Shown: piece after piece, positions 8,982 through 29,266 of the stretch
How positions within the stretch are numbered: the first letter of the stretch is position 1
How the letters are laid out: every line of letters begins with the position of its first letter
DNA from: Candidatus Omnitrophota bacterium
GTDB lineage: Bacteria; Omnitrophota; Gorgyraeia; 2-02-FULL-51-18
DNA: 62,993 bases
Reading direction: 5' to 3'
NCBI GenBank assembly: GCA_023247915.1
Contig: JAHFFN010000004.1
Location: 1 to 62,993, forward strand
Notes under the pieces: model-generated
The model's database searches: none
The model's input: only the letters and a program-made list of their open reading frames with translations
Told to the model about the DNA's origin: nothing
Program-made: the position numbers and the translations under genes

Positions 8982-9009
8982 CGTAGATGCCTCGCGCCAA
9001 ATCACAAGT

Positions 9010-15100: not shown

Positions 15101-18100
15101 AACGGCGTTTTACAAAAGACGCAAAACCTGGCCGCGGACGGCGTGACGGTGATTTCAGAAGCGCTTCCCAGTGTTTATACCTATTTTCCTTCCGGCAATC
15201 GTAAGAGTCTTTACGATGGAGTGACACACACTACTTCGTATTATTTGGATGAAAACTTTTATGGGAATGATGGGCAAGGGCATGGGCGAGGCCGCAAGAG
15301 CAGGGAAGTAGCGGATACCGGACTTGAAATGCGCTACACCGAATATTGGACGGGTACCGATAAAGTCAAAACCAAAGAAATTTATCAAGGTGGCATTCTC
15401 CAGAAAACCCAAAGCTTCCTCTCGGATGGGGTGACCCTGTCTAGCGAAACCAATCTTTTTGGTGATCACTACGAGTTTTTCACCACCGGCAATCGTAAGA
15501 GTTTTTATGAAGCAGCTAGCCATGTCACTTATGAGTATTACGATGAAAATTTTTATGGCAACGATGCCGATGGTCACGGCCGTGGTCGCGTCTTGCAGGT
15601 GACGCAGCCGAACGGGGGAACTCTGCAATACAACGATTATTGGCCCGGCACGGACAAAGTAAAGCAAGCGACTTTAGCGCCCAACACGCCTGACGCTCAT
15701 CACTATGAGTACTATTTTACGGGCAATGAATTTCGTCATACGCCACCTTCAGGTGAAATCACGGAGCGATTGGACGAGAATTTTTATGGCAATGATTCCA
15801 TGGGCCATGGGCGAGGCAGAGCCAGCAAAGTAATTGGAACAGATGGTTTTGAAGATCGCTATATTGATTATTGGACTGGCACTGATAAAGCCAAAACGAT
15901 GGAGCTTTATTATTACGGAACGTTAGTTGCGACTATTGAGTACTACTCCGATGGTGTGAACGTTTCCAAAGAGACTCGTCCCGACGGCGCTGTGTATGAA
16001 ATTTATCAAAGCGGTAATTTGAAGAGCTCAACTAATTTGCTGGGTTATAGAGAATATTTAGATGAGTCTTTTTATGGTCCTTCTGAGTTTGGCTATCCTA
16101 TGGGGCGCATTTCTCGTCAAATTTTGGGTGGCGTAGAGTATCGCTACACCGAATACTGGCCAGGCACCGACAAAATCAAAACCAAAGAAATTTATCAGAA
16201 TGGCGTCCTTCAAAAAACTCAAAGATTTGCTTCGGATGGAACGACCTTGATCAGTGAAACTTCGCCGTCCGGTATCGAAACTCGTTTCATCGAGTATTGG
16301 CCGGGAACAACGACGCTAAAAAAAGTGGAGCTTTATCAAGCCGGTGTTTTTCAAAAGGCTTTGGAGTATTTCTCGGACGGCATTCAGATCTCCAAAGAAA
16401 CTCTGCCCAATGGCAATGTCACTGGGTATTATTTGTCGGGTCGCACGCAAAGCTTTTTGGATAGTTCTGCGGGTACGCTCACGGAATATCGTGATGAAGA
16501 TTATTACAGCGTTGGCACGACAGATCCCACGACGATCGAAGATGGTTCCAGCGCCGGTCATAGCTTGACGATCGCGGGGAATGCGCAAATTGATCTGACA
16601 AATAAGAGAGCCGCCAGCACCAATTCCATGCCTATTCGCTTAGATGGCAGTGGGGATTATGTTCAAGTCAATGATAGCCCCGACTGGGACTTTGGCACGG
16701 GTGACTTTACTTGGGAAACTTGGATCCAGTTTTCGTCCACCACCGGAGATATTGAACTGTTCAGCCGCTCTGACGCCGAATGGTCTTTGCAAAAAACACT
16801 TTCAGGGAATCTTAGACTTCAGCTAAATGATCGTGTCGTGAAATCCGAAGCGTGGTCGCCGGTAGCCGGAACTTGGTATCACGTGGCGGTAGAACGCTCT
16901 TCCGGAAATCTCTATTTTTATGTGAATGGAAATGTGCTGGGGACAGGCACTGCCGACAGCACCAATATCATTGGTTCTAATCCTATCCAAGTGGGCGCCA
17001 CGCATACCGGTGCGCGATCCCTCAACGGTTGGGTTGATGGATTTCGTGTTTCCAAGGGCGTTGCCCGTTACACGGGTAATTTTACCCCTCCGGCTGATCT
17101 TGTCGCAGATGGACAGAGCAATTTATCGCTAGCGCCCGTACTTGTGCCCGCAGGCCCCAGTCAGGGTCGCAAAACTCGTGAACTTTTATCCGATGGCTCT
17201 GAAAATCGTTACGTCGAATATTGGTCTGACACCGACACGGTGAAAACCAAAGAAATTTATCAGAACAGCGTGCTTCTAAAAACGGAGAGCTACGCTATCG
17301 GCGGGGCTATTCTCGCTACCACTTATTATGTGTATGCGGGAGATTCGATCCAAGCGATGATTGACCGGGCGGTTGCCGGAGATACAATTGTTGTTGGTTC
17401 CGGAACTTATCACGAGCATTTGATCCTAAAAGAGGGCGTGTCCTTAAAAGGACAGGACGCCAAGACGACGATTATTACCGGAGACAGCGCGGTTCAGACG
17501 CATGTGATTGTGGCGCGGGGGAATAACACGATTGAAAATCTTACGGTGACCGGCGGCGGAGCTTACAGTGGCTCGGCTTCAAGCGCGATCCGAGTCGAAG
17601 GCAATGAGGTCGTGATCCGAGGAAATCGTATCACCGACAATCAAGACTACGGCGTCCAGGTATGGTTCACGTCGGATCATGTCACCATCGAGCATAATTT
17701 ATTTTTAAATAACAAAGAAATTGGTATTCAGTTGCCGCAAAATCAAACGACGATTCAGAATAATACATTGGTTCACAACGGCATCGGCATCAATATTCTC
17801 GGCGGCGCGGCACCGACGATTGATAATAATGTGATTACTGACAGTACTTTTCAGGCAATTTATGAATACGCGGTGGCGCAGAACCCGACGGACGGTTACG
17901 CGCATGTTTCCAACAATACTTTCTTTAACAACGCCGAAAAAGGCGGTTATTACTCAAAGGGCGTTCCGCCGGCGGTGGCGAATCAAACGGATGGCAACCA
18001 AATTGCTGACCCGCATTTTGTGGATCCCACGCATGGAGATTATTCGCAACAATCCGTTTCTTCCGCCGCGGCGACTTCCGCTGTGGTTCTTAGCGCCGAG

Positions 18101-18223
18101 CTCTCCAGCTACTTTGATGTGAAGTCCCAACAAGCCGAAGAAAGAAATTCTCCTTTGTATGGGACGCTGTCCAGAAATATTCAGCAGATTCAGCCCTCCG
18201 CCACGTCCGCAAACGAGCGATAA
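12107..18223 (+). CDS. Giant secreted subtilisin (S8) - novel repeat array - LamG x2 - right-handed beta-helix protein
   Basis: ATG 12107 gives signal peptide MKKILAALLTVTTCLSFSTWGVASP. S8 triad: VAVIDSGI (Asp codon 12677), DGHGTATAG (His 12842), SGTSFATPIVAGAAALL (Ser 13382). Nine EYW(P/T)GTDKVKTKEIYQxGVLQKTQ repeats. Two LamG modules (DWDFGTGNFTWETW..WYHLAIERSSGSIYFYVNG..NGWVDGFRVS). C-terminal beta-helix (YAGDSIQAMIDRAVAGDTIVVGSGTYHEHL, NNTIENLTVTGG, IRGNRITDN, IQNNTLVHNGIGI). Confidence 0.9.
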   Translation: MKKILAALLTVTTCLSFSTWGVASPTLKGSTVSFYPVIAGYERFFRETKERFEQLHNPRSENLQSVATSASLKKAYSQTKTAPSASSHTQEIQIIQLDRQEASNLSRSIKVDTPTQTRISSDFINNVVTTPVLFSSIQIQRIFYSLTDSINIMQLAPNDTYYSAQWALAALNMESAWDFTRGAGITVAVIDSGIQYTHEDIAANIWSNPGEIAGNGLDDDHNGYVDDIRGWNFRSNNSDISDTDGHGTATAGTIGAVNNNNKGISGVAPGVKIMGLRAFNANDTFNDLYTVVEAMISSVRYAVDMGARVISISLGFISDFFAGNQLTRFQDSISYARSRGAIVVAAGGNGGQAMDLYPALFNDTIAVGALYKSPLDGSILRDSYSNYGNDLDFMAPGTNILVLRMAGSDYAYYNGNSNYTQQSGTSFATPIVAGAAALLLAQNPLQTFDDIYRRLKFSSTDKGASGFDTENGWGMINPFKALSEDYYSNGNIKTRFLSAADFYGIIRKDYDTGGNLSNQYDASGNRGVFDYYPGTGKVQRVTFYNPQNVVLLTNEYYADGVSIYRRLYPDGHILEYALAGWLQKENFSNGDIRWYFVSGNNQKFSELLSGKIYEYLDENFYGNDAQGHGRGRKTKEVTTANLEFRYTEYWPGTDKVKTKEIYQGGVLQKTQRFASNGTTLISETSPSGLETRFIEYWPGTDKIKKTEIYQSGSLQKTLGYYLDGNLQSSLSASSGTLEEYLDENYYPTSTIDFSVVKDSSTANHALTLSGDTKIDLTNQRVGSANSLPIRLDGNTDYIQASDSPDWDFGTGNFTWETWIKFSSTSGDIELFSRSDNEWSLQKTNGGTLRLQLGGPVVKTEPWSPQTGVWYHLAIERSSGSIYFYVNGSALGSGSPSNASISGSDPIQIGATHTGARSLNGWVDGFRVSTGVARYTGNFTPPIDLIADAQSSLALAPAIVPTSAAQGRKTRELFPDGHEFRYLEYWTGTDKVKTKEIYQNGVLQKTQNLAADGVTVISEALPSVYTYFPSGNRKSLYDGVTHTTSYYLDENFYGNDGQGHGRGRKSREVADTGLEMRYTEYWTGTDKVKTKEIYQGGILQKTQSFLSDGVTLSSETNLFGDHYEFFTTGNRKSFYEAASHVTYEYYDENFYGNDADGHGRGRVLQVTQPNGGTLQYNDYWPGTDKVKQATLAPNTPDAHHYEYYFTGNEFRHTPPSGEITERLDENFYGNDSMGHGRGRASKVIGTDGFEDRYIDYWTGTDKAKTMELYYYGTLVATIEYYSDGVNVSKETRPDGAVYEIYQSGNLKSSTNLLGYREYLDESFYGPSEFGYPMGRISRQILGGVEYRYTEYWPGTDKIKTKEIYQNGVLQKTQRFASDGTTLISETSPSGIETRFIEYWPGTTTLKKVELYQAGVFQKALEYFSDGIQISKETLPNGNVTGYYLSGRTQSFLDSSAGTLTEYRDEDYYSVGTTDPTTIEDGSSAGHSLTIAGNAQIDLTNKRAASTNSMPIRLDGSGDYVQVNDSPDWDFGTGDFTWETWIQFSSTTGDIELFSRSDAEWSLQKTLSGNLRLQLNDRVVKSEAWSPVAGTWYHVAVERSSGNLYFYVNGNVLGTGTADSTNIIGSNPIQVGATHTGARSLNGWVDGFRVSKGVARYTGNFTPPADLVADGQSNLSLAPVLVPAGPSQGRKTRELLSDGSENRYVEYWSDTDTVKTKEIYQNSVLLKTESYAIGGAILATTYYVYAGDSIQAMIDRAVAGDTIVVGSGTYHEHLILKEGVSLKGQDAKTTIITGDSAVQTHVIVARGNNTIENLTVTGGGAYSGSASSAIRVEGNEVVIRGNRITDNQDYGVQVWFTSDHVTIEHNLFLNNKEIGIQLPQNQTTIQNNTLVHNGIGINILGGAAPTIDNNVITDSTFQAIYEYAVAQNPTDGYAHVSNNTFFNNAEKGGYYSKGVPPAVANQTDGNQIADPHFVDPTHGDYSQQSVSSAAATSAVVLSAELSSYFDVKSQQAEERNSPLYGTLSRNIQQIQPSATSANER
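14039..15127 (+). repeat. Copy 1 of a ~1.1-kb intragenic duplicated module (2 short repeats + LamG + linker + 1 short repeat)
   Basis: RYTEYWPGTDKVKTKEIYQGG .. DWDFGTGNFTWETW .. GRKTRELFPDGHEFRYLEYWTGTDKVKTKEIYQNGVLQKTQ. Collinear with copy 2 at an in-frame offset of 2103 nt (701 codons). Confidence 0.85.
16142..17290 (+). repeat. Copy 2 of the ~1.1-kb intragenic duplicated module
   Basis: RYTEYWPGTDKIKTKEIYQNG .. DWDFGTGDFTWETW .. GRKTRELLSDGSENRYVEYWSDTDTVKTKEIYQNSVLLKTE. By eye the DNA is diverged but clearly alignable with copy 1, for example the shared stretch agccccgactgggactttgg. Confidence 0.85.
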
Positions 18224-18280: not shown

Positions 18281-19780
18281 TTGGAGAATGACTGTTTGAG
18301 AAAAAAAATAGTCCCCGGATCTTTTGACATTGTTCTAGGCTTCGTTGTCCTTTTCGGCCTTTTTTTGAGGCTGTACCAACTCCAAGCGTCCAGCCTATGG
18401 CTCGATGAAATCATGACTTCCGGGCGCATCCAAACGCCTACCCGCGATATCCTTCACGATCTTCTTAAAACGCCGTTTCCACCGTTGTATTATGTGTTCA
18501 TGCATTATTGGACGGGATTCGCCGGGCTTTCGGTATACACCCTGCGCCTTCCTTCAGCGCTTTTTTCAACGTTGATCATTCCTGCGGCTTTTTTCTTCAC
18601 CCGGGAACTTTACGATAGAAAGACAGCGTTGACAGCGGCCTTCTTGCTGAGTCTGTCCCCATACGCGATTTTTTACGGACAGGACGCAAAAATGTACCCC
18701 TTGCTTTGGCTGTTAGGCATCTTATCGTTCTACTTTTTTTATCGAATGATGCGAGAAGGAAGGAAAAGCGATGTTTTTTGGCATTGTCTTGTTACGACAC
18801 TCGCGATCTACACGCTTTACATCGGCTTTGTATTTATTTTAATTCAGGTGGGGCTGTTTTTATTTTGGTCGCGACGCTTGCATTGGAAACAATACGTTTT
18901 AAGCCTGGCTTGCACGCTAATTCTTTTTTTTCCATGGGCCGCTATTTTTATCACGCAAGCGGCGCATCGGACGGGCATTCAGTGGATCCCTAACATTGGT
19001 ATAGGAGAGTTTTCGTTAAAGTTGATCCGGGAAATTATTTTTGGCCGGGGCTATCACAAACTGATTCAGCCGCCGAAGCCCATGCTGATCGCCGCCTTCG
19101 CGGGAATCTACATCCTGATCGGGTTATCCAATTTTATTCGATTAGACGGAGCTGGAAAGCGACGGAGGCTCTCCTTTGAATTCGAGCCGAACAGTGTTTT
19201 TGTGGCGTCCTTGGTGGCCGGAACACTCTTAATTTACGGATTGATTCATTGGGCGCATTATCCAATTTTAATTGTCCGGTATGTGGGATGGATTCATATT
19301 CCGCTGGCGATATTGGCGGCGCGCGCTTTGTGGCGATTTCGACCGCCGACTCGTGTTATTTTGTCGGTTTTTGTGATGGCGGGACTTTTATTTGCTGTGC
19401 ATTTTTATTATCGTCATGCAATAAAGACTTGGGAGGATTGGAAGGAAATGTTCGTAGTTCTGCAAAAAGAAATTTCCGAGACTCCGGATTCTCACCTTAT
19501 TGTTAGCTCGGTTTGCTCCCCCAGAATGCAACCTGTTTTTAATCGTGCCGTCCGTGTTTATAATGCTGGAAAGCCGCTGGAGGCAATGCATGAGGCGTTT
19601 TTTTTGAAGAATCGGAAAGAGTTGCTCAGTCAAAATTTCCGAAAGATTTTTATTGTTTATCGTAAGAAAGAAGCAGTTCCCGAGATCTCCCTGCAAGGAT
19701 ATGAGGCCGTCGACCATTCTTTTCTTGGGCAGATCGGGTTTCTGGAATTTAAGAAAGTGACGCCTCATGACGAAAAGTAG
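18281..19780 (+). CDS. GT-C fold membrane glycosyltransferase (GT39/GT83, PMT/ArnT-like), module A
   Basis: Polytopic protein with about 10 or more hydrophobic helices. After TM1 comes the loop motif SLWLDEIMTSG, the D-E motif typical of PMT_2/ArnT-type enzymes. TTG start. Confidence 0.75.
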   Translation: MENDCLRKKIVPGSFDIVLGFVVLFGLFLRLYQLQASSLWLDEIMTSGRIQTPTRDILHDLLKTPFPPLYYVFMHYWTGFAGLSVYTLRLPSALFSTLIIPAAFFFTRELYDRKTALTAAFLLSLSPYAIFYGQDAKMYPLLWLLGILSFYFFYRMMREGRKSDVFWHCLVTTLAIYTLYIGFVFILIQVGLFLFWSRRLHWKQYVLSLACTLILFFPWAAIFITQAAHRTGIQWIPNIGIGEFSLKLIREIIFGRGYHKLIQPPKPMLIAAFAGIYILIGLSNFIRLDGAGKRRRLSFEFEPNSVFVASLVAGTLLIYGLIHWAHYPILIVRYVGWIHIPLAILAARALWRFRPPTRVILSVFVMAGLLFAVHFYYRHAIKTWEDWKEMFVVLQKEISETPDSHLIVSSVCSPRMQPVFNRAVRVYNAGKPLEAMHEAFFLKNRKELLSQNFRKIFIVYRKKEAVPEISLQGYEAVDHSFLGQIGFLEFKKVTPHDEK

Positions 19781-20534
19781 CCCGATGAAATTTTCAATTA
19801 TCGTTCCTATTTTTAACGAGGAGAGAACCGTCGTCATTTTATTTGAGGCGATCCAAAAGACAATGGATCGACTTGATAAAAACTATGAAGTTATTTTTGT
19901 GAATGACGCTTCCACGGATCATAGCTGGGACTTGATGAGGCATTTGGCTGAAACCTCGCCGAAATTTGTGGCGGTGGATTTGGCCGGGCATCTAGGGAAG
20001 TCAGCCGCGATGCAGGCGGGGTTTGACGAGGCGCGCGGAGAATTTATTATCACGATGGACGGAGATTTACAGAATGATCCGGCGGATATTCCGAAACTCT
20101 TTGATAAATTACGGGAGGGTTATGATGTGGTTTGCGGCTGGCGACGCGTGCGATCGGACACCTATAAAAAGAAAATAGCATCTCTGGTGGCCGGCTCTTT
20201 CAGAAAAATGATCACCGGAGAGTCTCTTCATGATGTGGGCTGTCCTTTTAGGATTTTTAAACGCTCCGCCTTGGAACATGTCTATCTATCGGGCGGTTTG
20301 CACCGCCTTTTTGCGTTGATCATGAAAAAATCAGGCCGGCATATCGTCGAGGTGGAAGTCCGCGACCATCCGCGCTTATTCGGAAGGACGAAATTTAAAG
20401 ACAGAGCCAGGATTGTTGAGGGAGTCCGGGATTTGCTGAGGCTGTCTTTTTTTGATATTCAAAAGCTGATGAAGCGAAATTCCGATATTCTGATCAAGAG
20501 GATTTTAAAATCCGCCCCTTCAAATAATCTCTGA
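19767..20534 (+). CDS. GT2 polyprenyl-phosphate glycosyltransferase (ArnC/GtrB/DPM1-like), module A
   Basis: FSIIVPIFNEERTV, VIFVNDASTDHS, ITMDGDLQNDPADIPKL, CGWRRVRSD, PRLFGRTKFK. Start overlaps the GT-C gene end by 14 nt. No C-terminal TM helices. Confidence 0.85.
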   Translation: MTKSSPMKFSIIVPIFNEERTVVILFEAIQKTMDRLDKNYEVIFVNDASTDHSWDLMRHLAETSPKFVAVDLAGHLGKSAAMQAGFDEARGEFIITMDGDLQNDPADIPKLFDKLREGYDVVCGWRRVRSDTYKKKIASLVAGSFRKMITGESLHDVGCPFRIFKRSALEHVYLSGGLHRLFALIMKKSGRHIVEVEVRDHPRLFGRTKFKDRARIVEGVRDLLRLSFFDIQKLMKRNSDILIKRILKSAPSNNL

Positions 20535-21642
20535 TTGCCAACGCCGCTTTTTTGTGTCCCGAGTTATTCCAGTGATCGTTCTTGGAACTTAAATTTTTTG
20601 GCACATAATCAGATAGAGTGAGCGAATCGAGCAGATCCAGAGCTTGGATATTTAGTTTTTTAAGCAAAGTTCTGATTTTTTTGTAGTTGGTCGAAGCGAT
20701 GAGATGGTCTGTCGACTGCCAGAAATCCGGGATAAGAATGACCCCCAAAGGAATGTTTCTTTGATGGGTTTCCGTCACGATTTCTTTCAAATAACCTTCG
20801 GTGGCTATTACGCCTTTTTCTCGGATAACGTTGTGATCAATCAAACCCGGATGAATCATTTTAGAAATTTTTCCCCATAAACCTGCTTTGGTAGCGGCGG
20901 TTTTGCAGAGTGCCCCCAAGCGGGTATGATAGATGAAATGGATCCACAAGGTATTCTTTTTGTGGCAGTACAGCGCTTGGTAGCAGCGAAGAACTTCATC
21001 CCCGGATCTTTTTCTGACGAGCACTTCTTTGGACTTAGTGGTTGATAACTGATAATTATTTACCCATTGCCGAGAAAGTTCAGTGTAACGATTCAGTGGG
21101 GTCAAATTATCCGTCAAATCATTGCCACTATAGATGGCCAAGAGGACGGCTTGGGGCTTGAGAAGCTCGTCATATTTTTTGAGAACCGCCAATTCGTTAT
21201 TTTGCCCGTAGCCGCCGACGCCGGTATTGACGAAGAGTATTTTTTGATTCTCAAAATAACGGTTTAAGTGATCGACATATCCTTGACCCTGATCGGCATT
21301 GAATCCTTGTGTAAAACTGTCTCCCAGCACAAGAACACAACTCCAATCCGGATGGGTTTTTATGAATTCAATCTGAGAAGCTAATTTAGAAGTGCCTTTG
21401 GTATACCCAAGATCCTTATCCGGCTTTAAATCGCCATAAATTCCAAGAGTTAATTTCATTTTAATGGCTTTGTCCATAGAATCACAGCCGCAAAGCGGAT
21501 CGTGATTGCTTAAGAGTTTTTTTGCGGGTGAAGGCGGAGCCAGAATGGGGTAATTCAGACGCATCAAAATTTTTTCTGACGCGTACAGCGAAAAGGATAG
21601 CGCTAAAATAAATAAAATAAAACCTTGAAGAATTTTATTCAA
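20494..21642 (-). CDS. Membrane-anchored SGNH/GDSL hydrolase-fold protein, paralog c
   Basis: TTG start. Anchor ILQGFILFILALSFSLYA. Block I CVLVLGDSFTQGFN, NTGVGGYGQNNE, block V-like KNDHWNNSGHKKAALAI. Converges on the GT2 gene with a 41-nt overlap. Confidence 0.8.
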   Translation of the reverse strand: MNKILQGFILFILALSFSLYASEKILMRLNYPILAPPSPAKKLLSNHDPLCGCDSMDKAIKMKLTLGIYGDLKPDKDLGYTKGTSKLASQIEFIKTHPDWSCVLVLGDSFTQGFNADQGQGYVDHLNRYFENQKILFVNTGVGGYGQNNELAVLKKYDELLKPQAVLLAIYSGNDLTDNLTPLNRYTELSRQWVNNYQLSTTKSKEVLVRKRSGDEVLRCYQALYCHKKNTLWIHFIYHTRLGALCKTAATKAGLWGKISKMIHPGLIDHNVIREKGVIATEGYLKEIVTETHQRNIPLGVILIPDFWQSTDHLIASTNYKKIRTLLKKLNIQALDLLDSLTLSDYVPKNLSSKNDHWNNSGHKKAALAIRDYLKGRILKSS

Positions 21643-21643
21643 A

Positions 21644-22198
21644 TTACAGCGAAGCGGGGGTTAGAAGCGACAAGACCCAGGTTTCAGATTTGGCGGTGTT
21701 TCTGAGGTGATGAGGGGTCGAGGCGTGAAAATAAAGACATTCGGCAGTATTTAATGACCTTTTTTCTTTTCCAAAAACAAGCTCGATGGATCCCTTAAGA
21801 ACATAGATAAAACGTTCGGAAACAGTGGAATATTCCTCTGTCTCTGTGTGACCCTTGGGCTTGATCTTGAGAAGCACGGGCATCATTTTCTTTTGAAGGG
21901 AGCCTGAGATGAGAAGCTCCGCGACGGCACCACTAGAGTGGGAAAAGGTTTCGAGTTTTTGACGGGCGGCTTTTTCTTTGGCGGCGTGAAGCTTATCCAC
22001 GACCTCGTCATAAAGATCGGACAGGCGTATACCCAGCGCATCGGCGATCAGCATGTGGGAATCGAGAGTGCCGGTCATCTTACCGTTTTCCATGCGGCTT
22101 AGACTCGCCTGATCAATGCCGGTAGACTTGGCAAGCTCCACCAGGGTGAGCTTCCGGGACTTGCGTAAATGATGAATTCGATCGCCGAGGCCTTTCAT
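21644..22198 (-). CDS. XRE-family HTH regulator with C-terminal cupin domain
   Basis: HTH_3: LGDRIHHLRKSRKLTLVELAKSTGIDQASLSRMENGK. Cupin: FIYVLKGSIELVFGKEKRSLNTAECLYFHASTPHHLRN. Its stop lies 1 nt before the start of SGNH paralog c. Confidence 0.85.
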   Translation of the reverse strand: MKGLGDRIHHLRKSRKLTLVELAKSTGIDQASLSRMENGKMTGTLDSHMLIADALGIRLSDLYDEVVDKLHAAKEKAARQKLETFSHSSGAVAELLISGSLQKKMMPVLLKIKPKGHTETEEYSTVSERFIYVLKGSIELVFGKEKRSLNTAECLYFHASTPHHLRNTAKSETWVLSLLTPASL

Positions 22199-22274
22199 AT
22201 AAGAATAGTCTAATCTATTTTTGAGGAATAATCAAATGTCGGGAGGCTTGACATGGGGTGTGAATTGAGTAAAA

Positions 22275-23864
22275 GTGGCTCTTATGGCTCCCGCGAAAAA
22301 TACGGCAATCGCTATCTTGATGTGCGTAGTTATTTCTCTTTTTTTATTTTTCGAGCTAAAACCCTCCCTTGAAACGCCGGACATCAGTGCTGATGAGGGC
22401 TTATCCTACAGCACAACCGTGTTCTTGATGAATAATGTATCTGAGAACCCATTTCACTGGAAAGAAGTTGTATTTTTTGGACGGCATTATCCTTTAACAA
22501 GTAACGGCTGGAATCATGGCGCTCTGGAGTCGTACCTGATTTTTCCTGCCGTAAAGATTTTTGGAATCCACTTGTGGTCGTTAAGGATTATCCCTATATT
22601 TTTTGGGGTTCTAATTATTATTTTGACCTATGCCGTCGGTAGCCGCTTGTTTTCGCCGGCAGTCGGCCTTATTTCCTCTTCGCTTCTAGCGCTAAATCCA
22701 TTTTATATCACGGCAGTTAAGTTAGGCCCAAGCCTCGGTTTTTCTTTGCCTATGTTTTCTTTGATCGCGTTACTATCTTTGTGGAAATATCTTAAGACGG
22801 AAAAGAATCAGTTTTTATATTTGACGGCGTTTTCTCTTGGAGTGGGATTGAACGCAAAGGGATTTTTTGTTTGGTTTATTATCGGTTTTTTATTAAGCAC
22901 GTTATTCTGTTATTGGAATGTTCTGCGGAGAATAAAATATAAATCTATCGGTTTGACGGCGTTAGTTTTTTTTATAGGGGCATTTCCCGCTTTATGTTTC
23001 TACTATTCCAGCAGTGTTATGCGCATCGTAGCGCATTCCGGGGCACACGCGACCTATTTGGGGCATGACAATTTACGGATTTTAGAAAATTTAATAGTAC
23101 GACTAAAGCAACTTCGATTTATTTTGGGAGGTGAAAAGTGGGAGAATTTATTTTCAATAAATTTTCCGGTTGTCCTGTTTTGGCTTAGTTTTTTTTATAT
23201 CGCGCGCTTGATCATTTTTGGGGAAATGAGCCCAGAGAAAAAACAAATACGGCACTTATTTCTTATTATTTTATTTGTCGCAACAACCTCCACCTTTTCT
23301 TTCACAGGCCTCTGGCGCGTTCATTGGTGCATTCTTATGCCTTATTTGCAATTTCTTATCGCGGTGGCAATGGTTGAGATTTTTAAGTTAAGAAATTCTC
23401 TAAGCAGAGTTTTTGTTTCGACGTGTTTGATTTTGCTTTTGACGTGTTATTCAAATTTATTGATTTTGAGATACCACCAACACTCTCTTGAAAAAAAATC
23501 GTCGGGCACATGCAGTATCGGTGCGCTTACTCGCTGGCTGATCGATAATAAATATTCCGAGCCTGTGTCGTTTGACCCCAATGTTCATTTCGGATTAAGA
23601 ATATTCTCCGGGCTTAAAATGTGCAACCGGGAAACTATTTGTTGGCCCGATGAAAAAGACGCGAGAGAAATTATATACCGATCTTTGAGTCAGCCTAACA
23701 ATGGACGTGTTTTTATCGCGTCTTACATTAGGCCGCAACAGAAGGTAAACGAGTTTATCCAGTTTTCATTGGAGGAATTAAAGAAAAAGATGGTTATTGT
23801 CAAAGACTTTACGGATCCGGACACGGGGAAACTAAGATTCAGAGTTTTTGGTGTCACGGATTAG
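22275..23864 (+). CDS. GT-C fold membrane glycosyltransferase (PMT/ArnT-like), module B
   Basis: Polytopic. After TM1 comes the loop PDISADEGLSYSTT (D-E motif). Start is GTG 22275 or ATG 22284. Confidence 0.7.
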   Translation: MALMAPAKNTAIAILMCVVISLFLFFELKPSLETPDISADEGLSYSTTVFLMNNVSENPFHWKEVVFFGRHYPLTSNGWNHGALESYLIFPAVKIFGIHLWSLRIIPIFFGVLIIILTYAVGSRLFSPAVGLISSSLLALNPFYITAVKLGPSLGFSLPMFSLIALLSLWKYLKTEKNQFLYLTAFSLGVGLNAKGFFVWFIIGFLLSTLFCYWNVLRRIKYKSIGLTALVFFIGAFPALCFYYSSSVMRIVAHSGAHATYLGHDNLRILENLIVRLKQLRFILGGEKWENLFSINFPVVLFWLSFFYIARLIIFGEMSPEKKQIRHLFLIILFVATTSTFSFTGLWRVHWCILMPYLQFLIAVAMVEIFKLRNSLSRVFVSTCLILLLTCYSNLLILRYHQHSLEKKSSGTCSIGALTRWLIDNKYSEPVSFDPNVHFGLRIFSGLKMCNRETICWPDEKDAREIIYRSLSQPNNGRVFIASYIRPQQKVNEFIQFSLEELKKKMVIVKDFTDPDTGKLRFRVFGVTD

Positions 23865-23868
23865 AAAG

Positions 23869-25623
23869 ATGGAAATGAATGTTTTTTTGAGCGGGCTCAA
23901 ATACTCGGTCGTGATTCCTGTTTATAACGAAGAGGAATCAATCGAGCCGCTTAGTCTTGCGCTTAAAGCGCTGTTTGCAGGCGTAGATCACGAAATAATT
24001 TTTATCAATGACGGCTCCAGCGACGGCACCCTTTCGCGTTTGAACGCAGTAGCCAAAAGTTATCCCCAAATGAGTATTTTAAATTTACCCGTTAACTCCG
24101 GTCAGGGAAAAGCCTTGGAGAAGGGGATGGCTACGTCAACCGGCGATATCATTATCACGATGGACGGAGATTTGCAGAATGACCCTTTGGATATCATCAA
24201 ATTACTGCGAGCCATGAACGATGGTTTTGACCTTGTGTGCGGATGGAGGCAATCAAGACAGGATGCGTTTATTAAAAAATTTAAATCCATGATTGCCAAT
24301 CGCTTCCAGAGAGTGGTCACGGGCATCAAGATTCATGATATGAGTTGTTCATTGAGAGTATTTAGGAGATGGGTTTTGAAAGATGTTCACTTTAAGAGGA
24401 AGAACGACTTCTGTTTTTTTCCTTTGCTGGTCACTTTTAACAAGAAAGTAAGGATCTCGGAAGTTCCAATCAAAGGTAACCCCCGACAATACGGCCGGAC
24501 AAAGTATAAGACGATGCCTGTGATTATGGGAGTGGCGCGCGATTATTTTTCATTGGTGTTTAGCAGGTTTAGGATTCTTAGAACACTGTTTATTATTTGT
24601 TGCTACGCTTTGATATTGGAAGGAGCCGCGAGACTGATTATCATGAAGTGGGCGGTCTATCCGCGCCCCGTGTCTCTATGTCAATGCGATGTCACTTGGA
24701 GATGGGAGTGGGAGCAGAGGCATAAGAAAGGCACCCGCGTGTTTTATGGTTTCGATAGGTATGATCCCACCAGAGGATGGGCACTGCAATCAGGGGTGTC
24801 CAACAGACATTTTTTTGGCGGTAAGACCGTCAATTCCAATTCAAAGGGTATCCGAGGAAAAACCGAATACACCTACTCTAAAAAAGAAAATAAGCCGCGC
24901 CTATTAATCTTGGGGGATTCTTTCACTTTTGGCGATGGTGTCAATAATAATGAAACTTACCCGTATTATTTGCAACAGAAGTTGCCCGATGCCGAAGTGA
25001 TTAACTTTGGTGTGCACGGGTATGGACATGATCAAATGCTGATTTATCTTAAGGAGGAGGGCGTGAAGTACAGGCCTGACATTGTTATTCTGGGCTATAT
25101 GTCGACTGACTCCGAAAGAAACATGTTAAATTTTAGAGATTATGCAAAGCCAAAATTCCGTTTGAAGGGCGACCGCCTAATGCTTTGCGATAGCCCAGTC
25201 CCTTCTATCGATAGGGTGCTACGGGACATCCGGTGGGAATCAAAATTTTTTTCCATTCTCAATATTCTTGGGCATCAGCTTTTTTATAAAACAGAATTCT
25301 ATAAAAGACAGGAGAAAGAATTAACTTTAGGCATCCTCAAAGAAATAGCGGCCACTTCAAAAAATATCGGAGCGGTGCCAATCTTTGCGTATCTATCCAA
25401 TGTTAGATACGGGGGAGCTCTTGAGGCGATGACACGCGAAGAGGAAGATTTTTCAAAGGATTGTAAAGAAATAGGGGTAGATTGCGTTTTTTTAAGGCAG
25501 AATGTTCAGCGAGAGACGGAAAAGGGCCTTCAGATAGAGATGGCGGGCCACTTTGACGCAAAGACGTACGAGATTATCGCCTCCGGCATCAAAGAATATC
25601 TCATTAGTCACAACCTCCTCTAA
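23869..25623 (+). CDS. Fusion protein: GT2 polyprenyl-phosphate glycosyltransferase + TM helix + SGNH domain (paralog d), module B
   Basis: N-terminal: YSVVIPVYNEEESI, IIFINDGSSDGT, ITMDGDLQNDPLDIIKL, PRQYGRTKYK. TM: ILRTLFIICCYALILEGAARLII. C-terminal: NSNSKGIRGKTEY, LLILGDSFTFGDG (block I), NFGVHGYGHDQM, MAGHFDAKTYEIIA. Confidence 0.85.
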   Translation: MEMNVFLSGLKYSVVIPVYNEEESIEPLSLALKALFAGVDHEIIFINDGSSDGTLSRLNAVAKSYPQMSILNLPVNSGQGKALEKGMATSTGDIIITMDGDLQNDPLDIIKLLRAMNDGFDLVCGWRQSRQDAFIKKFKSMIANRFQRVVTGIKIHDMSCSLRVFRRWVLKDVHFKRKNDFCFFPLLVTFNKKVRISEVPIKGNPRQYGRTKYKTMPVIMGVARDYFSLVFSRFRILRTLFIICCYALILEGAARLIIMKWAVYPRPVSLCQCDVTWRWEWEQRHKKGTRVFYGFDRYDPTRGWALQSGVSNRHFFGGKTVNSNSKGIRGKTEYTYSKKENKPRLLILGDSFTFGDGVNNNETYPYYLQQKLPDAEVINFGVHGYGHDQMLIYLKEEGVKYRPDIVILGYMSTDSERNMLNFRDYAKPKFRLKGDRLMLCDSPVPSIDRVLRDIRWESKFFSILNILGHQLFYKTEFYKRQEKELTLGILKEIAATSKNIGAVPIFAYLSNVRYGGALEAMTREEEDFSKDCKEIGVDCVFLRQNVQRETEKGLQIEMAGHFDAKTYEIIASGIKEYLISHNLL

Positions 25624-25646
25624 TTTTGAAAAGCGATCAAATTGAT

Positions 25647-26381
25647 TTATGATTTTGGATGTTTGGGCTGAATATGGGGCGGAGAGGATTGGGAGGCTTC
25701 GTACAGGGGAAGCACGTCGGCCGTATCACCTTCCGCTTTCACGCGGCCTTGCTCAAGCCACAAGACTCTATCTGCCAGTTTTTGAATGTGAAGCGCGGAA
25801 TGAGAAGTAAAAAGAATCGTCTTTCCGGATTGTTTTAGATCCAGAAGCCGCCCAAAACTTTTTTTCTGAAAGTCTTTGTCGCCAACTGCCAGACTCTCGT
25901 CAAGCAAGAAAACGTCGGCGGAGAGCTCTGTGGCGATCGCGAAAGCCAGTCGCGAACGCATGCCGGTGGAATAAAATTTAAGCGGCATATCCAAGAAATC
26001 TTCAAGCTCGGAAAACTCGATCATGGTTCGGAAGAGGTTTTTCCGCAAGTCCACCGGCACATGAAAGATTTGGAATATAAAATCAATGTTGTCTTTGGCG
26101 GTCAAAACGCTGCTCATGGAGCTTTCGATGGATATCAGAGGAGCTCGGACGCCTCGAATGCTGACACGGCCCTTGCTCGCCTGGGTGACACCCGCAATAA
26201 GTTTTAATGCGGTCGACTTTCCGCAGCCGTTAGTTCCCACGAAAGCGATGGACTCGCCCTGTTGCACGGAAAAATTAATTTCTTGGAGTGACCAAAAATA
26301 GCTGGGTTTAAAGATGGAAAAATCTTTTTTAGGGTATTCTTTCCAGACATTGGAAAATTGAATGACCGGAGGCGTATTCAC
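25647..26381 (-). CDS. wzt: Polysaccharide-export ABC transporter ATP-binding protein (Wzt/TagH type, short form without a C-terminal glycan-binding domain)
   Basis: Walker A GTNGCGKST, signature-like YSTGMRSRLAFAIA, Walker B VFLLDESLAVGD, H-loop FTSHS. GTG start directly follows the wzm stop. Confidence 0.85.
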   Translation of the reverse strand: MNTPPVIQFSNVWKEYPKKDFSIFKPSYFWSLQEINFSVQQGESIAFVGTNGCGKSTALKLIAGVTQASKGRVSIRGVRAPLISIESSMSSVLTAKDNIDFIFQIFHVPVDLRKNLFRTMIEFSELEDFLDMPLKFYSTGMRSRLAFAIATELSADVFLLDESLAVGDKDFQKKSFGRLLDLKQSGKTILFTSHSALHIQKLADRVLWLEQGRVKAEGDTADVLPLYEASQSSPPHIQPKHPKS

Positions 26382-27140
26382 TTAGAGAACATCCGCGATA
26401 TTTCCGCTGAGTTTTTTAAATTGAGAGAAACCGAAGATAAAAATAACAATAGACCACAAAATAGACGGCACCAAATCGACTGCCAGCGGCGCCTGATTGT
26501 GAAGCACGATTCCGCGCGCGGATGCAATGATGCCGCACATCGGGTTGATCCAAAAAATCCAACCCATTTTTTGTTTTAAGATTTCAGCCGAGTAGACAAC
26601 GGGCGTCAAAAACATCCAACCAAATAAAATGGTCGGTAGGATGTTTTGTATCTCACGAACGTAGGGGGTAATGCAGGCCAATAAAAATGCCAACCCCAGC
26701 GTCAAAAGGCATTGAATAAAAAATACCGGGATTAGATATAAAACGTTGATACCCGGCAGGTGATGAAATACGCCTAAAAATCCGGTCAAAATCAGCAATG
26801 AAGCGATTAAGGGAACCGCCTGTGTGAGGAGAACTGAGGCGGGGATCGTCATCATAGGAATCCGGAGCCTTGAAATCAGCGGTTGATTATTTGCCAGGCA
26901 GGTGCAGGAGATGACCAACGTTGATGCCGTGAAGCTCCAAAACACGAGAGCGCAGTAATTAAAAACAGGATAAGGGACGCCTTCTGAGTGAGTTTGAATG
27001 ATCTTGGTGAAAACAACCGTGAACACCAGCAAACTAAAAAACGGTTGGATGGTGGGCGAGAAAATCGACATAAACCGCGATTTGTAACGGGTTTTTAAAT
27101 CACGAGTGGCCAAAGCCCAGATAATGCGAAAAATAGACAT
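26382..27140 (-). CDS. wzm: ABC-2 type polysaccharide-export permease (Wzm/TagG type)
   Basis: 252 aa with about 6 TM helices. N-terminal IWALATRDLKTRYKSRFMS is typical of ABC-2 permeases. Translationally adjacent to wzt. Confidence 0.8.
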   Translation of the reverse strand: MSIFRIIWALATRDLKTRYKSRFMSIFSPTIQPFFSLLVFTVVFTKIIQTHSEGVPYPVFNYCALVFWSFTASTLVISCTCLANNQPLISRLRIPMMTIPASVLLTQAVPLIASLLILTGFLGVFHHLPGINVLYLIPVFFIQCLLTLGLAFLLACITPYVREIQNILPTILFGWMFLTPVVYSAEILKQKMGWIFWINPMCGIIASARGIVLHNQAPLAVDLVPSILWSIVIFIFGFSQFKKLSGNIADVL

Positions 27141-27200
27141 GAAAGCATTGTAGCGGCTTTGGGGGAATTTTTCAAAAAATTATTGTATACTAGCCCTACC

Positions 27201-28313
27201 ATGAAGTTCAAAACAGTATTTTTTGCCGCACTTTTAGTCATTGAAATCGCTGTTTTAGATTTCGCAGCGGGTCGATTTTTAATCTATTTAGAATCTCATC
27301 ATAATGCCGCGATAAAAAAGATGCAGGAGGCGGAGCATGCTATTCGAACCTCTTCCACTATTTATCATCACGATTTAAAACCGTTAAAAAGCGCCCGAGT
27401 CCTCTGGGGAAATCTACGATACACGCTTACCACCAATTCTTTGGGATTTCGCGACAGCCAAATGCGAGACATTCCTCTAGAAACGTCCCAGCATCGAATC
27501 GTATTTATTGGGGATTCCTTTACCGAGGGGATTGGGGTTGATTTTGATAAAACGTTTGTTGGGATTATTCAAAAGAAGCTGGCCGAAACAGGCACCTCTG
27601 TTTTAAACGCAGGCGTTCTCAGCTATTCTCCCGTTCTCTATCTAAAGAAGATTGACTACCTTATTAACAAAGTCGGTCTTGAGTTTGACGAACTTGTGGT
27701 TTACATCGATGTTTCCGATATGGATGACGAGAATCAGTACCACATTTTTTATTCCACTCGTGATTCTGTGAATCTTGAGGAGGAAAGGAAAAAAGCTGTC
27801 GCCACCGCTGAATTGCATGACAAGAAAGCGCTTATTTTAACGGTAGGCAGAAAAAGGAATTCGTTGATTTTGAGGGTGATAGCTTTGCTTCGCGATCATT
27901 TTAAACGCCGCTCGCATCAAAAAGTTTTTGGTGCTCGCGGATTGTGGAGATCCTCATGGACTTTTGATGAAAAACTTTATCAGACTTATGGTCGGGAAGG
28001 TCTTGAAAGAGCCAAAGCGCACATGGATGATCTTTCGAAACTCCTAAAATCAAGGGGGATTCAACTTACCGTGGCGGTCTATCCATGGCCCGATCAAATC
28101 CTTCATCGGGATTTGAATTCCAGGCAAGTTATTTTTTGGAAGGAGTGGGCTCAAAAAAACAACGTCCATTTTATTAATCATTTTCCGGATTTTATTAACG
28201 GCAAAAATAGTAAAGAAGTGATCAAAAAGTTTTATTTGAGAAAAGATATGCACTGGAATCAGACGGGGCACCGGCTTGTCGCTGAACATTTTTTAAAAGA
28301 TAGGGGAAATTAG
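27201..28313 (+). CDS. Membrane-anchored SGNH/GDSL hydrolase-fold protein, paralog e (first gene of the 18-gene operon)
   Basis: ATG 27201 gives MKFKTVFFAALLVIEIAVLDF. NSLGFRDSQM. Block I RIVFIGDSFTEGIG, NAGVLSYSP, block V KDMHWNQTGHRLVAEHF. Confidence 0.8.
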   Translation: MKFKTVFFAALLVIEIAVLDFAAGRFLIYLESHHNAAIKKMQEAEHAIRTSSTIYHHDLKPLKSARVLWGNLRYTLTTNSLGFRDSQMRDIPLETSQHRIVFIGDSFTEGIGVDFDKTFVGIIQKKLAETGTSVLNAGVLSYSPVLYLKKIDYLINKVGLEFDELVVYIDVSDMDDENQYHIFYSTRDSVNLEEERKKAVATAELHDKKALILTVGRKRNSLILRVIALLRDHFKRRSHQKVFGARGLWRSSWTFDEKLYQTYGREGLERAKAHMDDLSKLLKSRGIQLTVAVYPWPDQILHRDLNSRQVIFWKEWAQKNNVHFINHFPDFINGKNSKEVIKKFYLRKDMHWNQTGHRLVAEHFLKDRGN

Positions 28314-28345: not shown

Positions 28346-29266
28346 ATGCTAAAGTCTCTGTTATGGCCATGGATTGGTCTGAAAAAGAATCTGGAATCGC
28401 TGGAGCAGGGGTTGAAGCGGTTCGAGAAAAAAACGAATCAATTTATCTCGGATGAGAACGTCCGCGCGGTAAATGAGGAAAGAGCTTTAAAGCGGGTCGA
28501 AGATTTTTTTCCGGTCAAACGAAACTATATCCAGGGGACGGAAGAGGATCTGTACCTTGTTTCCTATCCGCGTTCGGGCGTGACCTGGCTTCGAGTGATG
28601 CTGTCAGAGCTCGCCTATCAGTCTTCGGGAGAAAGTTTGGCGGATCTCGATTACTTTGTTCCTGATTTAAGCCTGAATGTTTTGTCGGATCAGATCATCC
28701 CATCCTCGCGTCATATTTTTAAAAGCCACGAATCCTATCTTTGGAATCATTGGAAGACGGAGAAATATAAAAAAGTCGTCTATTTGATGCGGGATCCGCG
28801 GGATGTCGCTCTCTCTTATTACCGATACAACCAAAAACTTTGTAATTATGCGGGAAGTCTTGACGAATTCATCGCCGATTGGATCGCCGGGAGAATTTCT
28901 CCGGGCACCTGGTCACAGCATGTGGATTCTTGGGAGGCTTCGTCGATTGAAAAATACGGCGTTCAATCGTGTTTGATTAAATACGAGGATCTAACGCGCC
29001 AGCCCTTAGCGGAGCTTAAAAAAATTTCAGAATTTTTTTCGATCACGGCGGATTTAAAGGCATTGGAGAAAGCTGTCTCGAATTCTTCTGTCGAGCGCAT
29101 GAGGCAAAAAGAAGCCAAAGGCAAGCGAAGGGTGGAGATAGCTTCCGGCTTTGAGTTTATCGGGAAGGCGGAGTCGGGTCAGTGGAAAACGGCTTTGACT
29201 CGCTCACAGCAAGAGACCCTCGAGAATGCCTTTGGTAAAACGATGAAGCGCTTCGGATACCTCTAA
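28346..29266 (+). CDS. PAPS-dependent sulfotransferase (Sulfotransfer_1 type)
   Basis: 5'-PSB loop SYPRSGVTWLRVML and 3'-PB motif YLMRDPRDVALSYYRY. Both are canonical. Confidence 0.9.
   Translation: MLKSLLWPWIGLKKNLESLEQGLKRFEKKTNQFISDENVRAVNEERALKRVEDFFPVKRNYIQGTEEDLYLVSYPRSGVTWLRVMLSELAYQSSGESLADLDYFVPDLSLNVLSDQIIPSSRHIFKSHESYLWNHWKTEKYKKVVYLMRDPRDVALSYYRYNQKLCNYAGSLDEFIADWIAGRISPGTWSQHVDSWEASSIEKYGVQSCLIKYEDLTRQPLAELKKISEFFSITADLKALEKAVSNSSVERMRQKEAKGKRRVEIASGFEFIGKAESGQWKTALTRSQQETLENAFGKTMKRFGYL

Follow-up and report, generated by a model that had tools for sequence, protein, structure and literature searches.

A polyprenyl-phosphate-type GT2 glycosyltransferase joined to a predicted membrane-anchored SGNH domain in a Candidatus Omnitrophota glycan locus

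When two genes that are separate elsewhere are found joined end to end, do their products work in one pathway? This question is raised by a 62,993-nt stretch of DNA from a Candidatus Omnitrophota bacterium (contig JAHFFN010000004.1 of assembly GCA_023247915.1, positions 1 to 62,993 of the forward strand), hereafter the window, in which two sets of genes, modules A and B, each comprise a polytopic glycosyltransferase of the GT-C type (GT-C), a glycosyltransferase of family 2 (GT2) and an SGNH protein, the last two being fused in module B into a single polypeptide. The fusion proved to be reproducible and suggests that the GT2 and the SGNH protein work together, a functional lead that comparative genomics appears to support, with the association itself probably facultative. 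An earlier description of this region, made from the letters alone and referred to here as the sequence-only reading, had listed six open reading frames (ORFs), all of which were recovered with their domains by the ORF list and Pfam:

18281-19780, plus strand: GT-C_A, 499 aa; PMT_2, E = 2.8e-10, 41.1 bits against a cut-off of 26.1.
19767-20534, plus strand: GT2_A, 255 aa; PF00535 Glycos_transf_2, E = 1e-32.
20494-21642, minus strand: SGNH_A, 382 aa; Lipase_GDSL_2, E = 6e-8.
21644-22198, minus strand: XRE-family helix-turn-helix (HTH) and cupin regulator, 184 aa; HTH_3, E = 2e-9; Cupin_2, E = 3e-9.
22275-23864, plus strand: GT-C_B, 529 aa; PMT_2, E = 2.7e-11, 44.4 bits against a cut-off of 26.1.
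23848/23869-25623, plus strand: fusion protein; Glycos_transf_2 (aa 20-179), one hydrophobic helix and Lipase_GDSL_2 (Pfam).
23869-24576, plus strand: GT2 domain of the fusion, aa 1-236.
24586-24657, plus strand: transmembrane (TM) helix of the fusion, aa 240-263; hydropathy maximum 2.17.
24658-25620, plus strand: extracytoplasmic part of the fusion, aa 264-584; small beta subdomain and SGNH core.

The sequence-only reading had itself named three ways in which it could fail, namely the lack of a TM helix between the two domains, an assembly or frameshift artefact, and the loss of the catalytic Ser and His from the SGNH domains; the helix is present, the ORF is reproducible across assemblies and both residues are conserved. 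A Logan contig (SRR14366772) and an ENA contig (ERZ27280176) each encode an identical 582-aa protein, and the ENA contig differs from window positions 21282-26688 by one mismatch in 5407 nt (99.98% identity), so that with the window itself the ORF was seen in three assemblies and the fusion is real.

The structure of the junction was resolved by comparison with the unfused orthologs P0121 and P0122, which are 237 aa long and 66% identical to the GT2 domain of the fusion. Since these begin with MSVFLDGLKYS, matching MNVFLSGLKYS in the fusion, translation of the latter probably starts at ATG 23875 (582 aa), the alternatives being ATG 23869 (584 aa) and TTG 23848. At the other end the orthologs finish with …DYFMLVLRSKFRGYF (…LVLRSKFRGYF), three residues after the junction, while the …DYFSLVFSRFR of the fusion passes directly into ILRTLFIICCYALILEGAARL, the counterpart of the signal anchor with which unfused SGNH proteins begin (P0004 has …LLAFCLYALILEGGTRL). 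The GT2 domain corresponds to a complete stand-alone 237-aa GT2; the joining cost about three C-terminal GT2 residues and a short N-terminal SGNH tail, and left no frameshifted remnant. The fusion is a clean end-to-end join between a complete TM-less GT2 and a complete membrane-anchored SGNH protein. It arose after the split from the lineage of locus L101 (L and P denote loci and proteins retrieved from sequence collections), because there a GT-C_B ortholog, 50% identical, lies directly upstream of the unfused GT2 ortholog.

The single TM helix that had been proposed between the two domains was found both as one strong hydrophobic segment (aa ~240-263, Kyte-Doolittle) and as one helix in the AlphaFold2 (AF2) model. 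The full-length model, built from an alignment checked to place GT2 and SGNH homologs correctly, reached a predicted local distance difference test score (pLDDT) of 89.4 and a predicted TM-score (pTM) of 0.71, and comprises a GT-A domain (aa 12-201), an amphipathic helix (aa 215-233), a 29-residue helix (aa 235-263) running without interruption across the junction, and the SGNH domain (aa ~296-580). The N-terminal flank of the anchor is richer in Lys/Arg than the C-terminal one in 31 of 39 stand-alone homologs (means 4.3 vs 2.5). A cytoplasmic GT2 and an extracytoplasmic SGNH domain, as the sequence-only reading had it, are thus predicted, because these positive-inside statistics indicate N-in/C-out anchors and because a GT2 needs cytoplasmic nucleotide sugars.

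Both GT2s had been described as ArnC/GtrB-like, and their place in the polyprenyl-phosphate glycosyltransferase class was upheld by sequence (NCBIfam, PDB) and by predicted fold (Foldseek). NCBIfam ranked ArnC first for both (E = 4e-39 for GT2_A and 5e-37 for the other), followed by PgfS, a halophile dolichyl-phosphate hexose transferase and PpgS; all these scores lie far under the equivalog cut-offs, with 134.5 and 127.5 bits against 529 for the ArnC equivalog NF007986, and the two proteins are best regarded as ArnC-like, yet not ArnC. Among solved structures GT2_A matched ArnC (E = 1.6e-31), GtrB (2e-21) and DPMS (6e-21), and the GT2 domain of the fusion matched residues 9-239 of ArnC (E = 4.9e-34), the values for the two GT2s taken together being ~2e-21 for GtrB and ~1e-20 for Pyrococcus DPMS; a Foldseek search with the fusion model returned ArnC (7e-19), GtrB (4e-16) and DPMS (7.5e-15), the best PDB matches extending over ~265 columns. 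The DxDLQ motif is present as DGDLQN at aa 99-104 of the fusion, where D99-G-D101-L-Q-N constitutes the DXD motif, and at aa 98-103 of GT2_A, opposite 100-DADLQN-105 of ArnC. The basic residues that bind polyprenyl phosphate are represented in the fusion by R127 and K136, opposite R128 and R137 of ArnC, the RQxRQD and (R/K)xYGxxKY motifs are kept in the alignment to ArnC, and GT2_A carries GWRRVRSD at aa 124-131 (residue roles in ArnC from PMC12690121). The juxtamembrane helix is likewise represented, by the amphipathic helix that directly precedes the TM helix in the AF2 model.

Neither GT2 has the two C-terminal TM helices and the beta-hairpin that build the ArnC/GtrB tetramer, and GT2_A, already reported to be without TM helices, shows no hydrophobic segment in the Kyte-Doolittle profile. 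The ~50 nearest relatives of the GT2 domain of the fusion are stand-alone, TM-less proteins of ~210-265 aa, several of them from Omnitrophota metagenome-assembled genomes (MAGs), and the classical ~320-aa forms come only lower in the list; the TM-less form therefore seems to be common among ArnC/GtrB-like synthases. A tblastn search placed matches to the fusion of ~1574 nt in three loci from Solobacterium MAGs (L008, L009 and L012), where an ArnC-like GT2 lies beside further GT2 ORFs; no SGNH match was found in the tblastn region, and tandem or fused GT2 genes could account for these loci.

As regards the SGNH half, Ser351 (in GDS) and His561, the catalytic residues expected by the sequence-only reading, are invariant in an alignment of 42 sequences (alignment A1), as are G349-D-S351 as a whole, Asn379/Gly381 and Asp414, and N418 is nearly invariant. 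The fused domain accordingly shows the residues of SGNH blocks I, II, III and V together with the SGNH fold. The Asp of the block V DxxH motif is missing, the fused family reading G-H-(F/W/Y) with no acidic residue at -3; the domain may work with a Ser-His dyad or with an Asp supplied from another position. Over its C-terminal 350 residues the fusion resembles a large stand-alone family (~360 aa, 40-54% identity) from Omnitrophota, Nitrospirae, Elusimicrobia and many metagenomic sources; at least 1000 representatives of 50%-identity clusters match the whole fusion at E <= 1e-30, and nearly all of the best 150 do so through the SGNH half. No curated family claims the SGNH proteins, the only named matches, both weak, being LA_2486 / LA_2490.

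The AF2 model of the TM and SGNH portion (pLDDT 91.5) contains the domain on which Foldseek ranked CgnD first (5e-9), then TesA, Axe2 and other SGNH esterases, with probability 1.00 for TesA, Axe2 and others. CgnD is the SGNH-like leader peptidase of crocagin biosynthesis (PMC10070186), and this function was not transferred to the fused SGNH domain, a TM-score of ~0.5-0.6 and 13% identity being too weak for it. An AlgX/AlgJ/PatB-type assignment was set aside as well, the AlgJ and AlgX matches to the SGNH family profile being marginal (E = 0.03-0.1, by sequence) and an MBOAT/AT3 partner lacking, and is kept below as a minor rival.

The GT-Cs had been called PMT/ArnT-like, and both indeed exceed the Pfam gathering score for PMT_2 (PF13231). 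Kyte-Doolittle profiles gave at least 8 hydrophobic segments for GT-C_A and about 10 or more for GT-C_B, and an acidic motif lies near aa 40 in the first loop of each (LDE, aa 41-43, in GT-C_A; ADE, aa 39-41, in GT-C_B), so that score, polytopic topology and first-loop motif all place them in the GT-C/PMT_2 group. GT2_A overlaps the end of GT-C_A by 14 nt. On the opposite strand SGNH_A converges with GT2_A, with a 3' overlap of 41 nt, and because its start codon lies 2 nt past the end of the regulator ORF, on the same strand, it is suggested to be co-transcribed with the regulator rather than with GT-C_A/GT2_A. The regulator, which has a weak PuuR-like match in NCBIfam, is itself divergent from GT-C_B, with a spacer of 76 bp. 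SGNH_A has a hydrophobic stretch at aa 1-23 and the motifs GDS107-109, GND and D356-H357, and is 19% identical to the family to which the fused SGNH belongs; its N-terminal segment agrees with the membrane anchoring proposed for it, although a cleavable signal peptide (…SLYA/SE) is possible instead of an anchor.

Further SGNH genes and a glycan exporter surround the two modules:

8818-10014, plus strand: TM-anchored SGNH paralog in which GSS replaces GDS.
10031-10960, plus strand: TM-anchored SGNH paralog; Lipase_GDSL_2, E = 1.4e-13.
25647-26381, minus strand: Wzt; ABC_tran (Pfam), TagH/Wzt-like in NCBIfam.
26382-27140, minus strand: Wzm; ABC2_membrane (Pfam), Wzm/KpsM-like in NCBIfam.
27159-28313, plus strand: SGNH_C, 384 aa; ALGX, E = 7e-8; Lipase_GDSL_2, E = 7e-6; TM aa 20-38; divergent from wzm.

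Five SGNH paralogs thus lie within ~20 kb (8818-10014, 10031-10960, 20494-21642, the fusion at 24571-25620, and 27159-28313), the first two of which align with alignment A1 in hhalign at E = 4e-17 and 7e-20 (probability 98.8-99.2%). To judge from these sequences they represent a lineage-specific expansion whose members are dispersed over a glycan locus, rather than two neat triplets. Glu251 and Arg255 (LEGAARL), at the outer end of the anchor helix, are near-invariant in the same alignment, and because an LExxxR motif recurs at this place in the 8818 and 10031 paralogs, there are hints that the helix may be more than a passive anchor.

Wzt and Wzm constitute an ABC-2 glycan exporter directly downstream of the fusion and are the first genes of a ~19-kb glycan locus (25.6-44.6 kb), which continues for ~17 kb with GT2, GT4 and WbsX glycosyltransferases and several sulfotransferases. 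The sulfotransferase-family genes lie at 28346-29266 and 30987-31739, with weaker matches at 37832-38833 and 42800-43564, and suggest that the surface polysaccharide is sulfated, a rarity among bacteria. Midway through the locus, the product of 31736-33304 (522 aa, 6 or more predicted TM segments) has no significant Pfam match; it is a candidate polymerase, ligase or additional GT-C-like enzyme. TolC-like (OEP) and AcrB genes in the window are diderm markers, and the envelope is taken to be diderm because of them. Upstream of the modules the window encodes two giant secreted proteins, one of 1643 aa with C39 peptidase and LamG domains (28-4959) and one of 2062 aa with an S8 subtilase domain, two LamG_3 domains, a C-terminal beta-helix and repeated YD-like segments (12035-18223); the gene of the latter, on the strand of GT-C_A, stops 58 nt short of it, and its product may be a target for glycosylation. 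The glycan region is also preceded by an IS200-like Y1 transposase gene (5547-6125), and further along the window are a gene for a DedA/VTT-domain protein (50178-50804), which adjoins an H+-pyrophosphatase gene (47710-50181), and a type III glutamine synthetase gene (57368-59614), whose product shares 78-81% identity with numerous MAG proteins, mainly assigned to Candidatus Omnitrophica where they carry a name. The DedA/VTT family has been implicated in the recycling or flipping of undecaprenyl phosphate.

How old and how widespread the arrangement is was addressed by comparing the two modules with each other and with related loci. The modules had been presented as a duplication. Their identity is 20% for the GT-Cs (E = 8e-4), 36% for the GT2s (E = 3e-51) and 30% over 86 aa for the SGNH proteins (E = 9e-8), and each has closer orthologs elsewhere, namely at 50% for the GT-C_B type and 66% for the GT2_B type in L101 and at 47% for the GT2_A type in L102, a locus that holds one copy of each GT2 type. 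A recent tandem duplication, with paralogs only 20-36% identical, was accordingly rejected, and modules A and B are instead anciently diverged paralogs.

A TM-less GT2 adjoins a PMT_2 GT-C in all six related loci (L101, L102 with two pairs, L104, L105, L106 and L107), L106 holding two GT2 and three PMT_2 genes; the counts of GT-C neighbours rest on Pfam and precomputed annotations, an iterative search with hidden Markov models for GT-C relatives in the fetched loci having retrieved only GT-C_B orthologs. An SGNH gene accompanies the glycosyltransferase pair in two of the six: in L104 the order is SGNH-PMT_2-GT2 with overlapping ORFs, and in L106 a GDSL protein is co-oriented with two PMT_2 genes and abuts a GT2. 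Radical SAM genes recur beside TM-less GT2/PMT_2 pairs as well (L019, L102/L103, L105, L106 and L107), B12-binding domains being present in L102, L105 and L106, and L102 encodes a 1296-aa protein that combines GT2, B12-radical SAM and GT4 domains.

From the SGNH side, 80 metagenome loci were fetched. In L020 a GT87 gene (GT-C), a GT2 gene and an SGNH gene follow one another on one strand with overlaps, and in at least four high-GC loci (L041, L054, L055, L088; probably also L089) a PI-GT (polyprenyl-phosphate GT2) gene is followed on the same strand by a gene for a polytopic protein of 870-980 aa, convergent with the SGNH gene. These polytopic proteins of ~900 aa are encoded as follows, on contigs of 68-73% GC:

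L041, 9250-11850, minus strand.
L054, 4471-7422, minus strand.
L055, 2743-5526, minus strand.
L088, 1260-4040, minus strand.

Each has 13 or more predicted TM segments; pairwise identity is 44-56% from locus to locus (89% for L055 vs L088), and no Pfam, NCBIfam or PDB match was obtained. They may represent an unannotated GT-C family. In loci L021-L100, carbamoyltransferases of the NodU/CmcH type (Carbam_trans_N/C) tie with GT2s as the commonest neighbours of SGNH genes. The crocagin cluster, from which CgnD comes, also has a carbamoyltransferase, perhaps by coincidence.

A second GT2-TM-SGNH fusion was found in P0023 (655 aa), whose GT2 belongs to a different subfamily, not of the polyprenyl-phosphate type, and which lies within a Wzt-containing glycan cluster with a polyprenyl-phosphate GT2 one gene away; among the best 150 of 1.84 billion representatives it is the sole other GT2-SGNH fusion. 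P0326 joins an SGNH domain to an NPCBM glycan-binding domain. P0259 (633 aa), a candidate for a second ArnC-type fusion on account of two matched stretches, turned out to be a GT2-GT2 tandem. P0274, P0285, P0321, L037, L056 and L076 have N-terminal extensions without a Pfam domain, some of which may be over-extended ORFs in high-GC DNA, and scanning genome contigs with the fusion protein gave distant GT2 matches only.

Taking the components together, we hold with slightly better than even confidence that the window carries two diverged periplasmic glycosylation units of the Gtr/Arn/Ppm kind beside a Wzm/Wzt glycan locus, with accessory (de)acylation by SGNH proteins, one of which also tethers its synthase through its TM helix. 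In this scheme the TM-less GT2 would transfer one sugar from a nucleotide sugar to polyprenyl phosphate at the cytoplasmic face; the lipid-linked sugar would be flipped, by a flippase encoded outside the module; and the adjacent PMT_2 GT-C would pass the sugar on to an extracytoplasmic acceptor, most likely the neighbouring, probably sulfated glycan exported by Wzm/Wzt, or alternatively a secreted or surface protein. The SGNH domain, at the outer face, would remove or transfer an acyl ester on the same glycan or on the lipid-linked sugar, and its TM helix would tether to the membrane a synthase otherwise without one. We infer the sugar, the acceptor, the substrate and reaction direction of the SGNH domain and the functional coupling, and (de)acylation of the lipid-linked or transferred sugar, as the sequence-only reading suggested, is pure inference. 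Two precedents make deacylation between the synthase and the GT-C chemically reasonable. In the Arn pathway (ArnC, then ArnD, then ArnT) the deacylase ArnD works on the carrier-bound sugar after the first transfer and before the second (PMC12690121). The mycobacterial route from polyprenyl-phosphate-GalNAc to GalN is the other.

Several observations weigh against this scheme. A PDB sequence search with both GT-Cs detected no relative of solved structure. No GtrA-like flippase was found in the window, where the DedA/VTT gene, 25 kb away, is the only ORF of 80-220 aa with at least 3 TM segments, and no MBOAT (PF03062) or AT3 (PF01757) partner was found by Pfam among window ORFs of at least 150 aa (those not inside a larger ORF, mostly at E <= 1e-4 to 0.01, and at E <= 0.5 for ten otherwise matchless ORFs). 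The fusion is confined to one lineage, a single species-level cluster, its nearest GT2 relatives, orthologs with 66% identity, stand alone, and the best 150 of the 1.84e9 representatives include no further GT2-SGNH fusion of the ArnC type. SGNH_A, counted by the sequence-only reading as part of module A, lies on the strand opposite to the glycosyltransferase pair, and in L102, L105 and L107, with adequate flank, no SGNH gene was found (L101 does not extend far enough for a verdict). Within two positions of an SGNH gene lie 143 genes of mixed families (carbamoyltransferase 5, GT2 5, GT1 4, PMT_2 4, PIG-V-type GT-C 2, among others), and, of 56 SGNH-family loci flanked by 2 kb or more, 7 contain a polyprenyl-phosphate GT2 by full-length profile match, L020 being one of them.

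On a rough estimate a random neighbourhood of 5-10 kb holds such a GT2 about 1% of the time, and because 7 of 56 exceeds this, the association looks real but facultative. Of the three-part module first proposed, then, the GT-C and GT2 pair recurs and is at times joined by an SGNH gene, but the whole is not tightly conserved; to judge from the loci compared, its conserved core would be GT-C plus GT2, with the SGNH protein a recurrent, optional accessory. The proposal that GT2 and SGNH act in one pathway fared similarly: P0023, the NPCBM fusion P0326, the L020 and L104 operons, the L106 cluster and the high-GC loci speak for it, and the heterogeneity of the SGNH neighbours and the low co-occurrence speak against it.

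Other explanations have to be weighed against the glycan-decorating scheme. In one of them, which we consider doubtful, the GT2 and PMT_2 enzymes act as Ppm1 and Pmt do, in O-glycosylation of secreted or surface proteins such as the product of 12035-18223, and the SGNH proteins are bystanders or act on lipo- or glycoproteins. Protein O-mannosyltransferases gave the PMT_2 family its name, 58 nt separate the gene of the 2062-aa secreted protein from GT-C_A downstream of it on the same strand, TPR-fused PMT_2 proteins occur in related loci (L105), and there is the Ppm1/Pmt precedent (PMC3460810; PMC5882110). PMT_2, however, takes in lipid and glycan transferases of the ArnT type as well, module B is next to the Wzm/Wzt exporter and its glycan locus, both GT2s are nearer to ArnC than to DPMS/Ppm1, and nothing in the locus identifies the acceptor. 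A different account, rather unlikely in our view, sees in the fusion nothing but an anchor: the TM-less synthase would borrow the signal anchor of an SGNH protein that acts on an unrelated periplasmic substrate. Human DPM1/DPM3 would be comparable, seen in this way. It would fit with the absence of ArnC/GtrB-type TM helices from both GT2s, with the mixed neighbours of the SGNH family and with the lineage specificity of the fusion. M. tuberculosis Ppm1 (Rv2051c) comprises an Lnt domain and a PPM synthase domain that are elsewhere separate, interacting Ppm2 and Ppm1 proteins encoded by adjacent genes, and it has been suggested that Ppm2 enhances the activity of Ppm1 by anchoring it at the membrane (PMC3460810). 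This precedent, a case of a TM-less synthase joined to a membrane acyl-transfer enzyme that serves its own pathway, cuts both ways, since the two activities fused in mycobacteria are themselves linked (lipoprotein acylation and glycosylation). Moreover, hundreds of closely related unfused GT2s of 226-250 aa, with GT2_A of the same locus counted among them, imply that an anchor is not required, and the independent fusion of the same SGNH family to another kind of GT2 in P0023, together with the overlapping operons, argues for a shared pathway.

It is improbable that the SGNH domains are O-acyltransferases of the AlgX/AlgJ/PatB/WssI type, which acylate the exported polysaccharide, rather than esterases. 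ALGX of Pfam matches SGNH_C and P0274 and is listed for P0074, the family profile gives the marginal AlgJ/AlgX matches already mentioned, and extracytoplasmic, membrane-tethered SGNH domains are typical of MBOAT-SGNH systems (PMC12148441); but an MBOAT/AT3 partner is lacking among the ORFs scanned, the fused domain keeps the classical arrangement, Ser at the beginning and His at the end, and its best structural matches are the hydrolases CgnD and TesA. Least probable by far is that the fusion reflects an error of assembly or sequencing, or that two adjacent genes have lately come to be read through to no functional effect. The fusion is unique to one species-level cluster, and where GT2 and SGNH genes overlap, as in L020, a one-base error could fuse them, yet the window, Logan and ENA assemblies carry the same ORF (with the single ENA mismatch), the junction is clean and without frameshifted remnant, the catalytic motifs are all intact and AF2 predicts one continuous helix across the junction.

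A more far-reaching version of the glycan-decorating scheme, which we regard as quite improbable, would make the SGNH protein a periplasmic-face editor of polyprenyl-phosphate monosaccharides that removes or adds an acyl group after flipping and before transfer by the GT-C, the Glu and Arg of the anchor engaging the head group of the carrier, in a widespread four-step pathway that includes the ~900-aa family. The putative editor would be the functional counterpart, on the opposite side of the membrane, of ArnD and of the mycobacterial polyprenyl-phosphate-GalNAc deacetylase. If this were true, GT2, SGNH and GT-C would together constitute a widespread, undescribed four-step pathway of glycan decoration.

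The decoration of surface glycans in the periplasm via lipid-linked single sugars is a driver of antigenic diversity and of resistance to phages and antimicrobial peptides, and the known systems consist of a synthase, a flippase and a GT-C. We found no description of a GT2-SGNH fusion or of a GT-C/GT2/SGNH module in the searchable literature. A large, uncharacterised family of single-pass SGNH proteins, repeatedly located beside such glycosyltransferases and twice fused to them, offers a testable functional hypothesis, and a widespread TM-less subclass of ArnC/GtrB-like synthases is documented here. The value of these results lies in a lead for annotation and for the cell-envelope biology of uncultivated lineages such as Omnitrophota, and they overturn no concept.

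Among the systems already described, the uncharacterised Leptospira SGNH/GDSL families LA_2486/LA_2490 are the only named ones matched by all five window paralogs, but with 28-50 bits against cut-offs of 300-325 the window proteins are not members. The extracytoplasmic carbohydrate (de)acylases OatA/OafB (AT3-SGNH fusions), PatB, AlgX/AlgJ, WssI and Ape resemble the window proteins as membrane-tethered SGNH domains at the outer face in surface-glycan loci, whereas the partner in the window is a glycosyltransferase, not AT3 or MBOAT, and the sequence similarity is marginal. ArnD has the NodB/CE4 fold, not that of SGNH. The window GT2s are ~30-35% identical to ArnC, with the same DXD, Arg and juxtamembrane features, and the GT-Cs belong to the ArnT/PMT superfamily, but the ArnD deformylase acts before flipping (PMC12690121) and the window has neither sugar-modifying genes of the ArnA/ArnB type nor ArnE/F. 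The Gtr-type systems (GtrA/GtrB/GtrC, CsbB/YfhO, GtlA/GtlB and the pentofuranose systems of Kelly et al. 2024, PMC11127046) share with the window a GT2 polyprenyl-phosphate synthase that adjoins a polytopic GT-C by an ABC-transporter-type glycan locus, and the logic of side-chain glycosylation after export; unlike them, the window module lacks a GtrA or MATE flippase gene, its synthases lack the two TM helices of GtrB, and an SGNH protein, present in no described Gtr-type system, accompanies the pair and is fused in one copy, the third part of the described three-component systems being a flippase (PMC11127046). The mycobacterial/corynebacterial Ppm1-Ppm2(Lnt)-Pmt system is a Rosetta-stone arrangement of the same kind (PMC3460810), in which a TM-less synthase and a membrane acyl-transfer enzyme, both working with a PMT-family GT-C, make up one polypeptide in one species and are encoded apart in others, although there the partner is a polytopic, N-terminal Lnt of the CN-hydrolase type in another lineage, whereas here it is a single-pass, C-terminal SGNH domain, and lipoprotein substrates are not evidenced for the window. 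All the components come from known superfamilies, and their overall logic is that of the familiar Gtr/Arn/Ppm scheme.

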